A DNA stretch of 64,000 bases from Chlamydiae bacterium Ga0074140. Its GTDB lineage: Bacteria > Chlamydiota > Chlamydiia > Chlamydiales > Rhabdochlamydiaceae. Positions 25,510 to 55,386 of the stretch are shown here, piece after piece (within the stretch, counting starts at the first letter, position 1; every line of letters starts with the position of its first letter). The notes below the pieces were generated by a model, which was not told where the DNA came from, made no database searches, and was given only the letters and a program-made list of their open reading frames with translations. The DNA is taken from NCBI GenBank assembly GCA_001464115.1, contig LNES01000003.1, positions 516,943 to 580,942 on the forward strand, given 5' to 3'. The position numbers and the translations under genes are program-made.

Positions 25510-25554
25510 AAAAGAAGGGGAGAGATCGGACGCGGAAGAAAGAGGGATTTTTTT

Positions 25555-25595
25555 GCGCGAAGCGCCTCGGTGTTCTCGCTGCGCTCGGCGTTTAA
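25555..25595. repeat. Family A half-element
   Basis: GCGCGAAGCGCCTCGGTGTTCTCGCTGCGCTCGGCGTTTAA closely matches the reverse complement of the left arm of the element at 31277-31368. Confidence 0.5.
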
Positions 25596-25611
25596 ATTCT
25601 TTCTTCCCTTT

Positions 25612-28583: not shown

Positions 28584-28624
28584 CCTGTGGTCTGCGGGTT
28601 TTGTTCGTTGAACTAAGAAAGACC

Positions 28625-28814
28625 CACCACAGAGACACAGAGTAAGATGAGGTAGCACAGAGAAAAACAAACTCTTTTTTTGTAAGAGAACAAAAAAAGA
28701 GGTTCCCACTGCCGCGAATAGCGGCGGGAGCTTTTTCTTTTTGCTCTCCAGCAAAAAGGAGAAATTTCTTTCTTTCCTCTGCGCTACCTCATCTTACTCT
28801 GTGCCTCTGTGGTG
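28625..28814. repeat. Palindromic MITE-like element, family A long form, copy 2
   Basis: Termini CACCACAGAGACACAGAG ... CTCTGTGCCTCTGTGGTG. The internal part matches the reverse complement of copy 1 (10986-11190). It lies between the divergent groES and pepF genes. Confidence 0.8.
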
Positions 28815-28886
28815 AATCTTTTTTCAATTTGTAAGGAAAATCTTGACTTACACACAAAGTCGCGCTTGTGATATCAGGTTTTACAT

Positions 28887-30817: not shown

Positions 30818-31096
30818 ATGTCAACTAAGTTCAAAGACTACTTCGTCGTTGTCAACGAAAAGGGGTTACACACACGTCCTTCCACGGAGCTCGTGCGGTG
30901 TGCAGCATCTTTTAAATCTCAAGTAACTTTGAGTTATCAGGATCAGCACGCAAGCGCCAAATCTCTTCTCGAGATTTTGATGTTGGCTGCTTCTAGAGGA
31001 GCGAAGGTAAAGGTGGAGGCTGAAGGAGAGGATGCCGAGGCGGCTATTAAATCGATCCTTCAACTCGCTCGCAACAAATTCAACATCAAATACTAA
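30818..31096 (+). CDS. ptsH: Phosphocarrier protein HPr
   Basis: 92 aa. GLHTRPS contains the active-site His, and SAKSLLEILMLAA carries the regulatory Ser region. Confidence 0.85.
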   Translation: MSTKFKDYFVVVNEKGLHTRPSTELVRCAASFKSQVTLSYQDQHASAKSLLEILMLAASRGAKVKVEAEGEDAEAAIKSILQLARNKFNIKY

Positions 31097-31259
31097 GAGA
31101 CAATCTCTGAATTAAACGCGGAACCTCCTGGGGCTTTTTGCAATCTTTTTATTCCCTTCGGGCATCCATATGCTCGTCCCGATATTGAATGCCCGAAGAA
31201 AATAAAAATCTCACTAAAAATCCCCTAGGATCTTCTCACGTTTAATTCAGAGATTGTCT
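31097..31259. repeat. Hairpin element of 163 bp with perfect 22-bp terminal inverted repeats
   Basis: GAGACAATCTCTGAATTAAACG ... CGTTTAATTCAGAGATTGTCTC. An internal nested hairpin is TTCGGGCAT ... ATGCCCGAA. The element starts at the last base of the ptsH stop codon. Confidence 0.8.
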
Positions 31260-31276
31260 CTAAGACAGGAAAGAAT

Positions 31277-31368
31277 TTAACCACCGAGCACACAGAGAAC
31301 ACCGAGGCGATTCGCGCAAAAAAATTGAAGCCGGGGCTCCCTCTTCATCTCGGTGTGCTCGGTGTTAA
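31277..31368. repeat. Family A short palindromic element (CACCGAG/CACAGAG heptads)
   Basis: The left arm is TTAACCACCGAGCACACAGAGAACACCGAGGCG and the right arm is CATCTCGGTGTGCTCGGTGTTAA. Confidence 0.75.
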
Positions 31369-31825: not shown

Positions 31826-31919
31826 TTAACCACAGAGAGCACCGAGAACACAGAGGCGCGTTGTGCGAGAATAAAACTCTCTTATATCTTCTCGGTGCCC
31901 TCGGTGTGCTCGGTGGTAA
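31826..31919. repeat. Family A short palindromic element
   Basis: The left arm is TTAACCACAGAGAGCACCGAGAACACAGAGGCG and the right arm is CTTCTCGGTGCCCTCGGTGTGCTCGGTGGTAA. Confidence 0.75.
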
Positions 31920-31959
31920 AACTCCACCGTTAGAAAACACCCCATTCAAAAACGTATGT

Positions 31960-32684: not shown

Positions 32685-33017
32685 TTGCAGAAAATGCAGG
32701 TAAAAAATCAGACTGGAGTCATGAGTAATGAGAAGAAGAAAGACTTTGCAGAAGAGAGTCCTAAAACACGAAGAGCGCGCGAGAAGCTCAAAAAGCATCT
32801 CGACGCATTCGAAGGCAAGATCACTCCCCAGGCTCTGCAGAAAAAGGCGATTGAGATCCACCGATGGATTTCACGTCATGCTGCAGACCGGATCGTTCTG
32901 AAAAGCAAGACAATCTCCCTCTTTGATGAAAATAAAAATGCTGCCGAGATCAGTCAGAAAATCTCTAAGCTCACCGAACAGATACAATCATGGAAGATGG
33001 ATACCAAAATAACATGA
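32685..33017 (+). CDS. Hypothetical basic protein
   Basis: 110-aa ORF that is K/E-rich. Its TGA overlaps the ATG at 33014 as ATGA. No family recognised. Confidence 0.4.
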   Translation: MQKMQVKNQTGVMSNEKKKDFAEESPKTRRAREKLKKHLDAFEGKITPQALQKKAIEIHRWISRHAADRIVLKSKTISLFDENKNAAEISQKISKLTEQIQSWKMDTKIT

Positions 33018-34423
33018 AGAATCGAGAGTTTGGCAAGGAGGCGCCCCAGAATTTTGATTCGGAGCGAGCGACCATTGCCAAGGGGCAAGGCGCGAGTGAA
33101 AATCAAAATTCGGGGGCAAAGCCGACGCAGCAAAAATCCGATTCTTCAGGTTGTTTTGGTATAATCGATTGCCTGAAAAGGCGCGGTTTTATCGACGCCC
33201 TCACGAGCGAGGAGATCCATCTTCTCGTTAAGAAACCGACTAAAATTTATGTGGGCTTTGATCCAACAGCCGATAGTCTTCACCTGGGAAACCTGATGGG
33301 GATTGTGGCCCTTGGATGGTTCCAGCGTTTTGGGCACACACCTTTTGTTATCTTGGGAGGAGCAACAGGTAGAATTGGAGACCCTTCAGGAAAGAGCGTC
33401 GAGCGTCCGCTTTTAGACTCCGCAACAATCGCGCACAACGTTTCACGTATCCGCACTCACTTCGAACAGATCCTTGACTTTTCAGATCCTGCAACGCGCC
33501 CCGTAATTTTAAACAATGAAGAGTGGTTTTCTTCGCTCTCTCTTATCGATTTTCTACGCGATGTGGGCAAACACTTTCGTGTTGGAACCATGCTCGCTAA
33601 AGAGATGGTTCGCTCAAGAATCGAATCGGAAGAGGGGATTAGCTATACGGAATTCAGCTACCAGATCTTGCAAGCGTACGACTTTTACTACCTTTGCCGT
33701 GATTATGATGTAATGGTCGAGATGGGGGGGAGCGATCAGTGGGGCAATATCACAAGTGGGATTGAGCTGACGCGTAAGCTCCTTGCAAAGCAGACATTTG
33801 GCTTGACTTTTCCTCTGCTCACGCGCAGCGATGGTAAAAAATTTGGTAAGACAGAAGAAGGGGCGATCTGGCTCTCGCCGGAGCGCTGCTCTCCGTATCA
33901 GTTTTACCAGTATCTTTTCCGCATGCCCGATGCTGATGTCATCAAACTTATGCGGCTTCTCACATATATGGAGATGGAAGAGATCGAGGGGTATGAGAGG
34001 ATGATGAAGGCTCCCGACTACACTCCCAATACAGCGCAACGCAGACTTGCAGAGGAGCTAACGCGACTTGTGCATGGCGAAGAGGGTTTGCAGGCTGCGC
34101 TGAAAGTGACGGAGGGGGCAAAGCCTGGCTCTGAGGCAAAACTCGATCCCGAGGTTTTAAAAGAGATTGCAAACGATATGCCTAATCTCTCGCTGAAAAC
34201 AGAGGATGTTGTCGGTATAAAATATGTCGACCTCACCGTGAAAACAGGCTTTCTTTCCAGCAAAGGAGAGGCTGTTCGCCTCATCGAGAATGGCGGCGCT
34301 TATCTCAACAACGAGAAGATCCAAGATCCCCAGCTAAAGATCTCCCCCGAACATCTCATCGGTGGCCGCTATCTGCTCCTCGGCTCCGGCAAAAAAAAGA
34401 AACTCCTCCTCTCCATCACCTAA
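33014..34423 (+). CDS. tyrS: Tyrosine--tRNA ligase with an N-terminal extension of about 45 aa
   Basis: HIGH-type motif DSLHLGNLMG, KMSKS-type motif KFGKT, and a C-terminal S4-like domain. The start was chosen at the ATGA overlap; the track alternative is 32990. Confidence 0.9.
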   Translation: MKNREFGKEAPQNFDSERATIAKGQGASENQNSGAKPTQQKSDSSGCFGIIDCLKRRGFIDALTSEEIHLLVKKPTKIYVGFDPTADSLHLGNLMGIVALGWFQRFGHTPFVILGGATGRIGDPSGKSVERPLLDSATIAHNVSRIRTHFEQILDFSDPATRPVILNNEEWFSSLSLIDFLRDVGKHFRVGTMLAKEMVRSRIESEEGISYTEFSYQILQAYDFYYLCRDYDVMVEMGGSDQWGNITSGIELTRKLLAKQTFGLTFPLLTRSDGKKFGKTEEGAIWLSPERCSPYQFYQYLFRMPDADVIKLMRLLTYMEMEEIEGYERMMKAPDYTPNTAQRRLAEELTRLVHGEEGLQAALKVTEGAKPGSEAKLDPEVLKEIANDMPNLSLKTEDVVGIKYVDLTVKTGFLSSKGEAVRLIENGGAYLNNEKIQDPQLKISPEHLIGGRYLLLGSGKKKKLLLSIT

Positions 34424-34449
34424 TTTATTGTTGAAGAATAGGGGGATGA

Positions 34450-34925
34450 ATAGACATGTCGGGTGCCAGAGCACTAGCGTGTCCCTGTCCCCCGCGACCC
34501 CCCTTGCGCCTCATCTCGCTTTGAAAAATCCTGTGCTCGGAGGCGGGGTGTGCGAAGCACTACCCCGAAGCCATCGGCTGCTCGCGCGCTCGTCTTCCCG
34601 CGGGACTAACGTCTCGTCGCGGGGCCCTTTTCTCGCGTCGTCTCGCAGAGCGAGGTGAAGACCTCCAAGCCGTTTTCGGAAATCTTAACTTGGCACTGCG
34701 AGACGACGCGAAAAGGGGACCCAACCGCAAGGTTGGGGAAGTGAGCGCGCGAGCAGCCCGACGACTCAGATCGCGCAGAAAAATCATAGCGCAGGAGAGC
34801 GGAGCGGGCGGGGTAGTGCTTTGCACACCCCGCCTCCGAGCACTCGATTTGTCGAAGCAGATCGAAGACCTAGGGGGCAAGCGGGGGACAAAGACACGCA
34901 GTGCTTTGTCCCCGACATGTCTTAT
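34450..34925. repeat. GC-rich imperfect palindrome of about 480 bp built from stacked hairpin modules
   Basis: The left arm (34450 to about 34648) matches the reverse complement of the right arm (about 34697 to 34925) in conserved blocks. Those blocks are GACATGTCGGG..AGCACT.GCGTGTC..TGTCCCCCGC, GTGCTCGGAGGCGGGGTGTGC.AAGCACTACCCCG, GGCTGCTCGCGCGCTC and CGCGTCGTCTCGCAG. Confidence 0.85.
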
Positions 34926-35038
34926 TGGAGCGCATGGAGAGATTGTTTTGCATTTCATTTTTTCGGCTTACACAAAAGCGCTTGCTTGAAAATCAGTGTG
35001 ATACAACAATGGGCTAAAGACATGAGCTGATAGGAGTT

Positions 35039-35365
35039 ATGCATATGACCACGATCACAAAAAAGAAACTGATTCAAGTCATCTCTCAAGAAAGAGGAAT
35101 CCATCCAAATGATGTGCGTAACGTCGTGCAATCTTTTCTCGATGCAATGACACAATTTCTAGCGCAGGGCGATCGTTTAGAGTTCCGCGATTTTGGCGTT
35201 TTCGAAGTCGTCGAGAGAAAACAGAAGATCGGCCGCAATCCAAAGAACGCCGGAGTGCCTATCGTGATCCCCGCGCGCAAAGCTGTCAAATTCACACCTG
35301 GAAAAGAGATGCGCAAACTGATTGGCAAGGGCGCCTCTCCCAAACCTCCCGCTCCGACTCTCTAG
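35039..35365 (+). CDS. HU/IHF family DNA-binding protein
   Basis: Motifs FRDFGVFEVVERKQKIGRNPKNAGVPIVIPARKAVKFTPGKEM. The start could instead be the ATG at 35045. Confidence 0.85.
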   Translation: MHMTTITKKKLIQVISQERGIHPNDVRNVVQSFLDAMTQFLAQGDRLEFRDFGVFEVVERKQKIGRNPKNAGVPIVIPARKAVKFTPGKEMRKLIGKGASPKPPAPTL

Positions 35366-44052: not shown

Positions 44053-45351
44053 ATGCCATTTACACTCACCATGCCCAAACTTTCGCCGACGATGGAAGAG
44101 GGAACCATTGTAAAATGGCGAAAAAAAGAGGGAGAGCGCGTAAAGGTTGGCGATGTTCTTTTCGAGGTTGCAACGGATAAAGCAACCGTTGAACATAGCT
44201 CTCTCGACGATGGCTTTGTGCGCAAAATTCTTGTCAAAGAGGGAGGATCGGCGCAGGTCAATCAAGCTGTTGCTGTCATGACAGAGAAAGCAGACGAGAG
44301 TATCGAAGGCTATGTTCCTGAAGGGGTTGTCCAAAAAGCCGCAGCTCCTGCACCGGCCGCCGCAGAGAAGAAGCAAGAAGAGAAAAAAGTAGAGAGTGTA
44401 AAGCCCTCAGGACTCGGGCTCGAACAGCCTGCATTTGTTCCAGAACCTCCACTCACGAAATATGAATTTGCTGGAAGAGAAGGGGGAGTAGGGGAGCGAG
44501 TTTTAGCCTCTCCGCTCGCAAAACGCCTTGCTAAGGAGCGTGGCATCGATCTCTCCAGCGTGAAGGGATCGGGGCCACATGGGCGCGTCACAAGCCGCGA
44601 TCTCGATCTCGGCCAGAGCGCAGGCGCTGTTGCTTTCGGAAGAAGAGAGACTCCAACAATTGCTCCTGGTACATACGAGGAGATTCCACTCACGCCGATG
44701 CGCAAAGTCATCGCGCGTCGCCTCCAAGAATCAAAGACCTTTATTCCCCATTTTTATGTCTCGCAAGAGGTGAAAGCAGATCCACTCTTTCACGCACGTG
44801 AGCAACTTAAAGCAGGCGGCCTCAAAGTCTCATTTAACGATTTTGTCGTCCGCGCTTCCGCGCTGGCTCTCCGCGAACATCCCGAGATCAACAGCGGCTT
44901 TAATTCGACAAGTGCCAGTATCATTCGCTTCAAAACCATCGATATCAGTATTGCTGTTAGTCTTCCTGAAGGGCTGATCACACCCATCGTTCGCCATGCT
45001 GACTACAAAAACCTTGGGCAACTCTCCTCAGAAATTAAACATCTCGCTGAGAAAGCGCGTCACGGCAAGCTCGCCAGAGAAGAGTATGTAGGAGGATCGT
45101 TTACGATCTCTAACCTCGGCATGTTTGGGATTTCAGAGTTTTTTGCCGTGATCAACCCCCCGCAAGCCGCGATTCTCGCTGTAGGCGGTATCGAAGAGAA
45201 GCCAATTGTAAATAACGGACAAATTGTTCCTGGAAAGACGATGATGATGACGCTCTCAGTCGACCATCGCGTCATCGATGGTTCTGATGCTGCTAAATTC
45301 CTCAAATCAGTGCAAAAATTCCTCGAAAATCCCGCACTTCTCCTGCTTTAG
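44053..45351 (+). CDS. pdhC: Dihydrolipoamide acetyltransferase (E2)
   Basis: Lipoyl domain (EVATDKATVE), a P/A-rich linker, the E3-binding domain SPLAKRLAKERGIDL, and the catalytic DHRVIDG. Confidence 0.9.
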   Translation: MPFTLTMPKLSPTMEEGTIVKWRKKEGERVKVGDVLFEVATDKATVEHSSLDDGFVRKILVKEGGSAQVNQAVAVMTEKADESIEGYVPEGVVQKAAAPAPAAAEKKQEEKKVESVKPSGLGLEQPAFVPEPPLTKYEFAGREGGVGERVLASPLAKRLAKERGIDLSSVKGSGPHGRVTSRDLDLGQSAGAVAFGRRETPTIAPGTYEEIPLTPMRKVIARRLQESKTFIPHFYVSQEVKADPLFHAREQLKAGGLKVSFNDFVVRASALALREHPEINSGFNSTSASIIRFKTIDISIAVSLPEGLITPIVRHADYKNLGQLSSEIKHLAEKARHGKLAREEYVGGSFTISNLGMFGISEFFAVINPPQAAILAVGGIEEKPIVNNGQIVPGKTMMMTLSVDHRVIDGSDAAKFLKSVQKFLENPALLLL

Positions 45352-45365
45352 CCCCCCTCTTTTTT

Positions 45366-45394
45366 GGAGTGCGGTGACAAGTCACACGCACTCC
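45366..45394. terminator. Bidirectional hairpin terminator, minimal family B unit
   Basis: TTTTTT-GGAGTGCG-GTGACAAGTCAC-ACGCACTCC-AAAAA, lying between the convergent pdhC and the 129-aa gene. Confidence 0.65.
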
Positions 45395-45513
45395 AAAAAG
45401 AAAATCCAGAATTTTGTGTAAAATTTTAATAAGAATTGCAGGAGCAGACTAGTGAGAGCTTAGTTATAAATTCTCTATGTAACAAGTTCTTAAGGAATAT
45501 TGGAAGGGTGTTA

Positions 45514-55294: not shown

Positions 55295-55300
55295 CCGGTT

Positions 55301-55386
55301 TGGAGTGCGGTGACTTGTCACCGCTTTTCTCCGCCGCGACTCGTCGCGGTGGAACAAGAGGCGACGTTCAAAGCGTCGCCTTTTTT
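55301..55386. repeat. Family B multi-hairpin element, left-half variant
   Basis: TGGAGTGCGGTGACTTGTCACCGC-TTTTCTCC-GCCGCGACTCGTCGCGG ... GGCGACGTTCAAAGCGTCGCC followed by TTTTTT. It lies directly after the acpP stop. Confidence 0.75.

Follow-up and report, generated by a model that had tools for sequence, protein, structure and literature searches.

A GC-rich foldback palindrome between tyrS and an HU/IHF-family gene of an environmental chlamydia as a probable copy of a lineage-restricted, MITE/REPIN-like repeat family

The stretch of DNA considered here, referred to as the window, comprises 64 kb of the environmental chlamydia Chlamydiae bacterium Ga0074140 (contig LNES01000003.1), from a sample series taken in the activated-carbon filters of a drinking-water plant (PRJNA301005; PMC4863621, a paper in which chlamydiae are not mentioned). 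Its subject is an imperfect palindrome of 475 bp at window 34450-34924, located between tyrS and a gene of the HU/IHF family, of which further copies lie elsewhere in the same genome. The homologues of tyrS measure 421-430 aa (~423) and cover 88% of the 477-aa open reading frame (ORF) called here, and the true start of the gene probably lies near 33150, about 54 codons 3' of 32990; those that are named come mostly from metagenome-assembled genomes (MAGs) of Chlamydiales, Parachlamydiales or Rhabdochlamydiaceae. On the other side, the HU gene is followed by YkuD, accA and an ABC transporter gene. The element starts 26 nt past the tyrS stop codon and ends 55 nt before a block conserved upstream of HU.

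The palindromic nature of the spacer is beyond what base composition would produce. GC content reaches 0.58-0.625 over 34400-34900, compared with 0.45-0.52 around it and ~0.48 for the whole window. Alignment of the left arm with the reverse-complemented right arm, the check that had been proposed together with the original prediction of a GC-rich fold-back palindrome, reveals significant collinearity, with a local score of 141 against 18.7±2.2 in 200 shuffles (maximum 25). The arms are 87% identical across 198 aligned columns and differ by a single large indel, a module of ~50 nt present in the right arm only. The four collinear blocks and the two example hairpins that had been described are all found at their positions: 34453-34496 pairs with 34879-34921; block 2, termed B, pairs 34533-34567 with 34809-34843 (34/35 identical); 34576-34591 pairs with 34743-34758 (16/16 identical); and 34625-34648 pairs with 34696-34717. 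The central loop, estimated at ~48 nt, measures 47 nt (34649-34695). In agreement with this symmetry, the minimum free energy of the element as RNA is -323.9 kcal/mol compared with -190.8±7.1 in shuffles (z -18.7), and its DNA fold energy is -188.5 kcal/mol compared with -93.1±5.1 (z -18.8). The single-stranded full-length element is predicted to form one giant hairpin, and this inter-arm structure reaches -324 kcal/mol versus -198 for the two halves folded apart; either of the two forms first envisaged, a giant stem or a row of small hairpins, is possible. The mirrored ORFs noted at the locus (34362..34658 on the plus strand, 34560..34958 on the minus strand and 34690..34989 on the plus strand) do exist, and none of them holds a Pfam family. 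The features of the locus, with the modules of the element named from its ends inwards, are as follows.

32990..34423, plus strand: left-flanking gene tyrS, ORF of 477 aa
34450..34924, no strand: whole element copy, delimited by the palindrome, by half-element profile matches and by the empty site of relatives
34450..34463, plus strand: left terminal tag ATAGACATGTCGGG (family consensus ATAGACRTGYSGGG), from the tag comparison over 22 termini
34460..34494, plus strand: left subterminal hairpin H1, a weak form of -12 kcal/mol, from the fold of termini
34503..34532, plus strand: S1 segment, 'a' variant; in canonical copies, the 5' half of a long intra-arm stem whose partner is module E1
34533..34567, plus strand: B hairpin GTGCTCGGAGGCGGGGTGTGC-GAA-GCACTACCCCG, the best-conserved module, a 35-bp inverted repeat with 34809-34843
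34567..34568, no strand: junction lacking the 44-nt E2 module GCACGCCTTCGGCTCTCCTGTGCTTCGATTTCTCATTGCAGCTC relative to JGI contig L001
34568..34808, no strand: interior between B and B', in the opposite orientation in the ENA assembly
34577..34648, plus strand: third hairpin domain of the left arm, in which C (34577-34591) pairs with D1 (34631-34648) and F1 (34592-34627) is the tip hairpin
34649..34695, no strand: centre of the palindrome, 47 nt, partly self-complementary
34696..34757, minus strand: third hairpin domain of the right arm, with D1' (34696-34711), the tip hairpin F2' (34715-34742) and C' (34743-34757)
34758..34807, minus strand: E1 module, the large indel of the arm alignment, canonically on the 'a' arm and here on the 'b' side
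34809..34843, minus strand: B' hairpin, the inverted copy of B with 1 mismatch
34844..34874, minus strand: S1 segment, 'b' variant
34884..34913, minus strand: right subterminal hairpin H1', GGGGACAAAG...CTTTGTCCCC, -20 kcal/mol
34911..34924, minus strand: right terminal tag, reading TAAGACATGTCGGG on the minus strand
34980..35015, plus strand: block conserved upstream of HU, GCTTGCTTGAAAATCAGTGTGATACAACAATGGGCT, intact, outside the element and present in all relatives
35045..35365, plus strand: right-flanking gene of the HU/IHF family, 106 aa as called in other assemblies

A palindrome of this length raises the question of an assembly artefact, which could be a fold-back chimera or the erroneous joining of contig ends through a shared repeat. 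Each short-read assembly breaks inside the element, and the junction at 34567/34568, which lacks 44 nt carried by the otherwise identical (100%) JGI contig L001, is supported only by the window's own assembly. Of the two JGI contigs, L029 stops at window 34566, the point of divergence between the forms, and L001 corresponds to the window from its position 48 on but not before; when they are merged through a 4-nt overlap, the canonical B-E2 junction of other copies is restored and the element becomes 44 nt longer. The 34567/34568 junction reflects either a genuine deletion variant or an error in local assembly. The doubt is nevertheless confined to this missing module. Both arms are joined to the same flanks in independent assemblies (JGI L029/L001, ENA L008/L003 and Logan L002), and in four independent assemblies each arm is attached to a unique flank of its own, so that the palindrome in its entirety does not appear to be chimeric. 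In addition, the arms are imperfect, with 87% identity and indels, unlike those of a fold-back artefact, and complete copies of the same architecture occur elsewhere in the genome. An artefactual origin of the palindrome is thus exceedingly improbable.

Comparison with related chlamydiae indicates how the element came to lie at this site. In three relatives (L010, L011 and L013), in which tyrS is 78-82% identical, gene order is kept and the same block precedes HU, the tyrS-HU spacer is only 75-80 bp long versus 621 bp in the window; the element is therefore evidently an insertion between the tyrS stop codon and the HU upstream block. The block shared with these relatives reads CACTTGCTTGAAAATCA...GATACAACAATG and is presumably the HU promoter, but it did not pass the consensus promoter scan. 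Two other relatives (L014 and L031) carry unrelated palindromes in the same spacer, and such palindromes also occur after HU, which suggests that the tyrS-HU spacer is a recurrent landing site for hairpin elements within the clade. The arms of these palindromes (L014 3296-3498 and 3950-5100; L031 1-90) consist of ACGGAC, GGAC or CGTCCA arrays whose motif spacing is ~10-11 nt, about one helical period.

The same element is dispersed over the genome. The reference contig JALHQY010000001.1 (GCA_022841725.1; 1,744,624 bp) carries a tyrS protein identical to that of the window, and at least nine further sites are occupied by copies in this genome or in a 97%-identical strain. A scan of JGI metagenomes with an exact 21-mer of B retrieved 10 contigs (L015-L024), all from the same sample series and with a GC content of 0.47-0.50, on which at least 13 copies or fragments match parts of the window element with 75-98% identity; none is syntenic with it, and many of the contigs terminate within a copy. 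The proteins flanking the copies on L018, L019, L021 and L022 are encoded with exactly the same sequence on JALHQY010000001.1. For L015 and L017, exact flanking proteins lie on other contigs, that of the L017 strain on one of 864,547 bp, and >90% identical versions on JALHQY010000001.1, so that these two contigs appear to belong to a second strain. A half-element profile run with nhmmer recovers one complete copy in the window and two in each of two stretches of JALHQY010000001.1, L025 and L032. In the window it matches 34450-34648 on the plus strand (E=1e-41) and 34923-34696 on the minus strand (E=7e-70) and nothing else, and blastn likewise detects no second copy in the 64 kb.

All the copies seen are intergenic, often starting some tens of nucleotides past a stop codon, range from 310 to 680 bp and have a GC content of 0.56-0.62 versus 0.48-0.49 in their host. 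A 514-bp copy (L025a; L025 10855-11368) separates sctR (FliP family) from sctS (Bac_export_3) within a type III secretion operon, where it has been annotated as a gene of 194 aa in which no Pfam family is found; a 674-bp copy (L025b) lies between sufB and kdsB, and two more occur on L032. Internally deleted derivatives that keep both tags are found on L022 (L022b, 317 bp), L023 and L020. On L022, the upstream gene (454-1491, 345 aa) takes its stop codon TAG at 1488-1491 from the terminal ATAGAC of the element, which implies that this insertion either adjoins the original 3' end of that gene or has taken its place. The 3.4-kb contig L024 begins and ends (1-60 and 3358-3417) with exact reverse-complement copies of the same inner modules, and thus has a 3-kb gene block between two inward-facing 'a' arms; this arrangement could represent two copies or a fold-back of the assembly graph.

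Outside this lineage the searches returned nothing convincing. Among species-representative genomes, a collection from which the source genome is evidently missing, the B 21-mer has a single match, in a GC-rich intergenic region of an Acidovorax MAG (L009 1771-1791); this candidate was rejected as a family member, as the surrounding sequence shares nothing more and the match is probably due to chance in GC-rich DNA. The half-element profile has no match in the loci of the relatives or in the Acidovorax locus, and BLAST gives no match to the element in plasmids or phages. A coding role was examined and rejected as well, the three mirrored ORFs being without a Pfam family. When one ORF called across a copy was searched against 5.8 billion proteins, only 10 matches were obtained, without Pfam family or organism name; six are encoded on the source contig, one comes from the 313-kb JGI contig covering the window locus and three are from other contigs. 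With ORFs devoid of Pfam families and so few protein matches, the family is, as far as these searches can tell, non-coding, and it appears restricted to this lineage.

These results bear directly on the possibility that the palindrome serves a function specific to its locus, as a structured non-coding RNA or as a binding or recombination site for the neighbouring HU/IHF protein. The extremely stable predicted fold and the adjacency of an HU-family gene speak in favor of such a role. However, the same element is found at many unrelated loci, next to sctR/sctS, sufB/kdsB, an RF-1-domain gene, an FAD-oxidoreductase-like gene and others, and the spacer of relatives lacks it. The IHF consensus WATCARNNNNTTR is absent from all ten copies tested, and the block upstream of HU lies outside the element. 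No Rfam family matches the window at the gathering threshold, and with a permissive E-value cutoff the best values in the region are 2.8 and 4.1, the matches being at chance level (SRP, mir-M7). Promoter and terminator consensus sequences are likewise missing from the element: the consensus scan shows no promoter-like site in 34200-35200, and as an intrinsic terminator only one weak internal match appears (34611-34625), the terminal hairpins having no T-run and the scanned region giving 3 sites versus 1.0±1.0 in shuffles. A locus-specific function is consequently highly improbable, and the link to the adjacent HU/IHF gene that had been suggested is not supported. The accompanying argument that long palindromes are unstable, and that persistence therefore implies function, loses its force as well, since no host function is required for the persistence of a selfish multicopy element whose arms differ by 13% and by indels and enclose a 47-nt centre. 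The element is most likely a neutral passenger for tyrS and HU; its sole plausible local effect would be on a tyrS read-through transcript, whose 3' end would carry a highly stable RNA structure.

The comparison of copies defines the anatomy of the family. The tag ATAGACRTGYSGGG occurs inverted at both ends and is present at 22 of 22 termini examined, three of them with degenerate variants, and its conservation stops sharply outside ATAGAC. Directly inside the tag, every one of the 22 termini has a subterminal hairpin, with a mean of -20 kcal/mol; these hairpins have 22 distinct sequences that fall into at least 6 stem types, several of which share the loop GCACTNNGTGTC. Further inwards, the order of modules is S1 ('a' or 'b'), the B hairpin, E (E1 or E2), C, the F hairpin in several variants, D and the centre. 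Nearly all complete copies have one 'a' arm and one 'b' arm, which argues that the family has polarity and that the two arms are diverged partners and not a fresh palindrome. When 11 half-elements are aligned (A1), each arm folds into three local domains, namely H1, a stem of S1 and E with B at its tip, and a stem of C and D with F at its tip, and 94.3% of the alignment cells are paired in this intra-arm structure. Double-sided changes affect 15 pairs, compared with 6.6±1.7 in column shuffles (0/500 reach 15) and with 2-8 in controls in which the partners were slid by 1-3 columns. The linkage of variants follows the prediction of the intra-arm structure, 'a' being joined to E1 in 9/11 cases and 'b' to E2 in 6/7. 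Moreover, the two terminal hairpins within one copy are usually of different types and 47-70% identical, the window copy with 82% being an exception. Since the two ends of a copy usually differ in this way, the conserved feature would be a row of local hairpins and not a long cruciform; compensatory changes across copies likewise favor the second of the two structures initially considered.

Copies compared between strains and assemblies show that the modules are rearranged. L017, of the second strain, and L032 are collinear with 97.2% identity over 12.3 kb and carry both of their copies at the same sites; at the third locus compared between the close strains, the L025a copy matches JGI contig L021. 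In the first pair (L017a, L017 11137-11679; L032a, L032 8821-9432), the outer arms are near-identical and the entire C-F-D domain with the centre is replaced by another variant, with an extra hairpin at one end, a difference that looks like a cassette-like exchange between copies. Inversion as the cause of all mosaicism was rejected, given that this pair displays module replacement and not inversion. In the second pair (L017b, L017 14467-14652; L032b, L032 12187-12755), the two copies are 100% identical from the left flank through the tag, H1 and S1a into the 5' part of B, and beyond this point the sequence of L017b is the exact reverse complement, 88/88 nt, of the right-hand interior of L032b. 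Because both pairs of insertions are shared at orthologous sites by strains that are ~97% identical, they predate the split of the strains. Thus, of the initial proposal of a recently duplicated mobile repeat, the mobile repeat stands, with the same element at many unrelated loci of the genome and missing from the tyrS-HU spacer of relatives, and the recency does not for these two insertions.

The window locus itself has been assembled in both orientations. ENA contig L008 reads left flank-T-a-B and continues with E1 as the reverse complement of 34808..34785 (L008 5719-5742). The start of ENA contig L003 (1-103) is the exact reverse complement of JGI L001 1-98 (98/98) followed by five differing bases, after which it corresponds to the window from 34819 onwards with 761/761 identical positions. 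The switch point of orientation falls inside the 35-bp B inverted repeat, and the window and L001 have the non-canonical linkage (a-B-E2 ... E1'-B'-b') whereas the ENA assembly has the canonical one. From these junctions it is likely that the interior can be inverted by crossover in the B repeats and that both isomers are present in the population, bearing in mind that the orientations are known from assemblies and that PCR template switching at inverted repeats can generate such junctions at low frequency.

Inversion of this kind could also be programmed, with a site-specific recombinase flipping the 241-bp interior to regulate HU or tyrS. The presence of a 35-bp inverted repeat with 1 mismatch, formed by the best-conserved module of the family, would fit with such a switch, as would the finding that independent assemblies of one population show the interior in both orientations here and in a second copy. 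Nevertheless, the interior is quasi-palindromic and flipping it changes little, it contains no promoter-like site, and the HU upstream block lies outside the element. No recombinase family is found among the window ORFs of at least 110 aa, a search that leaves room for a gene acting in trans from elsewhere. One linkage dominates among the copies (9:2 and 6:1), which fits rare recombination better than frequent switching, and template switching during PCR could create minor junctions. A programmed inverton is therefore very unlikely.

Taken together, multiple copies, sharp inverted ends, deleted derivatives, an insertion relative to the spacer of relatives, the restriction to one lineage and the lack of coding capacity best support a non-autonomous mobile element. 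We propose, with a probability of about 0.78, that window 34450-34924 is one copy of a lineage-restricted, MITE/REPIN-like family of non-coding foldback elements in an uncultured environmental chlamydia (MITE, miniature inverted-repeat transposable element). This family is apparently new, and its closest known kinds are the bacterial MITEs and the REP/BIME/REPIN elements (REP, repetitive extragenic palindrome; BIME, bacterial interspersed mosaic element).

Several observations weigh against this proposal. Alignment of the 45-nt flanks of the termini shows no direct repeats flanking the tags, only weakly A/T-rich and purine-rich flanks, and the sole candidate for a target duplication is TA, a palindrome that could equally well be an extension of the inverted repeat (ATA...TAT). 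In the 64-kb window and the fetched loci no gene for a transposase, integrase or invertase was detected, and an autonomous element sharing the ends of the family did not turn up either; for the window, Pfam was run on 54 of the 59 non-overlapping ORFs of at least 110 aa and precomputed Pfam calls cover the other five stretches. The empty sites come from relatives that are ~80% identical, and no insertion or excision has been caught between close strains. The copy counts cover ~107 kb of the 1.74-Mb genome plus the JGI contigs. Finally, compensatory changes in hairpins may arise without selection, through template-switch correction of quasi-palindromes.

Some of the same observations are compatible with host-maintained structural repeats of the REP/BIME type, spread and homogenised mainly by recombination and gene conversion and kept for a role in RNA, such as 3'-end protection or operon punctuation, or in DNA topology. 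Local hairpins are retained by compensatory changes, modules are swapped between copies, copies lie just past stop codons and one of them inside the sctR-sctS operon, neither transposase nor target duplication turned up in the window and fetched loci, and other palindromic families populate the intergenic spacers of the window. Against this, the sharp conserved ends and the deleted derivatives that keep both tags (L022b, L023 and L020) are typical of transposition, and the hairpins have no terminator-like T-runs. The family is confined to one species-level lineage and unrelated palindromes occupy the same spacer in relatives, a situation that points to recent invasion. We regard host maintenance as unlikely.

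As regards mechanism, the non-autonomous mobile element would be moved in trans by a transposase encoded elsewhere, whose recognition site would comprise both the terminal tag and the subterminal hairpin. This enzyme could be a DDE transposase with a TA target, as for IS630-type MITEs, with which the arrangement A-TA-GAC...GTC-TA-T is compatible, or it could be an HUH/RAYT-like enzyme (RAYT, REP-associated tyrosine transposase) that acts on hairpins, the conserved tag beside a variable hairpin resembling the ends of REP and REPIN elements. Once inserted, copies would evolve by swapping whole hairpin modules with one another, and the inverted arms of a single copy would also recombine. Where the crossover falls in the 35-bp B repeat, the interior would be flipped, and this would explain the occurrence of both orientations among assemblies of the same population.

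A more elaborate version of this scheme is a hairpin-recognising recombination element, in which a dedicated recombinase of the HUH or site-specific type would use the near-invariant B hairpin for crossover, and would both move the element and flip or swap its hairpin cassettes at dozens of loci. We consider it rather improbable. If true, an obligate intracellular bacterium would possess a dispersed and invertible DNA system that shuffles cassettes, and the covarying arm of three hairpins might act as a functional substrate in the form of single-stranded DNA or RNA.

Copies also serve as targets for other elements. In L025b, a different MITE of 158 bp is nested in the centre (L025 19068-19225), with inverted ends GACCTTGTTGCGTAA/TTACGCAACAAAGTC and a 9-bp target duplication, GTATCAGGT. 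The interior motif of this nested MITE, GGAGTGCGG...CCGCACTCC, is found in another repeat family of the window too. A second palindromic family occurs at window 45345-45407, 55299-55349, 57215-57350 and 63019-63163, the last being a foldback of ~135 nt; its hairpins, GGAGTGCG(C)GTGACAAGTCAC...GCACTCC, stand between T-runs and A-runs, at some sites with inner GCGACAAGTCGC hairpins, and look like bidirectional terminators. Further palindromic families with short arm motifs (CACAGAG, CACCGAG) lie at 10976-11199 and 28615-28824; at 25547-25610, 31262-31325 and 31886-31924; and at 31093-31264. Several unrelated hairpin-repeat families thus seem to co-exist in this genome. Apart from repeats, the window encodes on its minus strand (11513-12880) an ORF of 455 aa whose sole Pfam match is a ubiquitin-interaction motif (E=1.3e-7), apparently a eukaryote-like feature of the kind typical for effectors of amoeba-associated chlamydiae.

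The genomes of pathogenic Chlamydia are known for their lack of repeats. The environmental chlamydia studied here has several families of palindromic intergenic elements, one copy of which lies in a type III secretion operon, and a full-text literature search returned no description of MITEs or palindromic repeats in Chlamydiae. In practical terms, the elements give rise to spurious ORFs of 100-250 aa, which are entered in databases as proteins, and every short-read assembly examined at these loci breaks within the element. The family opens no long-standing question and has no demonstrated link to HU or tyrS. It is a compact case of hierarchical palindromes with structure-preserving variation, module exchange and orientation isomers in one natural population, and its unusual features are its size, its hierarchical palindromy, its covarying hairpin cassettes and these isomers.

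Among known systems, the bacterial MITEs, such as the Correia/NEMIS elements of Neisseria, ERIC/IRU, RUP and the QMITEs of Coxiella, offer the closest parallels. Like them, the chlamydial elements are short, non-coding, multicopy, intergenic and lineage-restricted, have inverted ends and can fold as a whole into a long hairpin; deleted derivatives retain the ends and other MITEs insert into copies. Of the features by which MITEs are defined, the family displays a non-coding nature with a size below ~1 kb, dispersed copies, terminal inverted repeats and filled versus empty sites, the latter in distant relatives, and the TA at both ends is compatible with the TA duplication of IS630-type MITEs. 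In contrast to bacterial MITEs, the element has no demonstrated target duplication or parent insertion sequence, and its 475 bp (up to 680 bp in other copies) place it at the large end of their size range. At its ends, a tag of 11-14 nt adjoins a hairpin that keeps its structure but not its sequence, whereas in classical inverted terminal repeats the sequence is what is conserved, and unlike Correia elements the chlamydial element has no IHF site.

With the REP, BIME and REPIN elements, which are associated with RAYT enzymes of the HUH Y1 type, the family shares GC-rich extragenic hairpins in which a short conserved tag lies beside a stem that varies in a compensatory manner. As in REPINs, inverted terminal units form a larger hairpin, the whole element folding back here, and as in BIMEs, modules are combined in a mosaic fashion. 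REP units, however, measure 20-40 nt and REPINs ~100 nt, in contrast to the fixed architecture of seven domains and 310-680 bp seen here. REP sequences carry the head motif GTAG or CGTC (Di Nocera et al. 2013, PMC3733652); the tag of the chlamydial family reads ATAGACRTGYS, its hairpins are 30-45 nt long and neither GTAG nor CGTC occurs at their foot, so the family falls outside the head-motif definition of REP. No RAYT gene was seen in the ~107 kb read of the 1.74-Mb genome.

More distant systems recall single aspects of the family. Invertons have, like the window element, a segment between inverted repeats (here of 35 bp) with both orientations in one population, which was observed at the assembly level and at two loci; unlike them, the element has no promoter inside and no invertase nearby, its interior is quasi-symmetric and the inversion is a property of a dispersed repeat. 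The Rickettsia palindromic elements are selfish palindromic repeats that proliferate in an obligate intracellular bacterium; they measure 100-150 bp and are often inserted in frame into genes. The chlamydial family resembles them as a selfish palindromic repeat of an intracellular bacterium and differs from them in that all copies seen are intergenic. Lastly, the GC clusters of yeast mitochondria and the eukaryotic Foldback elements belong to another domain of life and have no sequence relationship with the family, and they serve as an analogy only: in both cases, GC-rich, palindromic, modular mobile DNA with long arms of sub-repeats is found in a genome of lower GC content.

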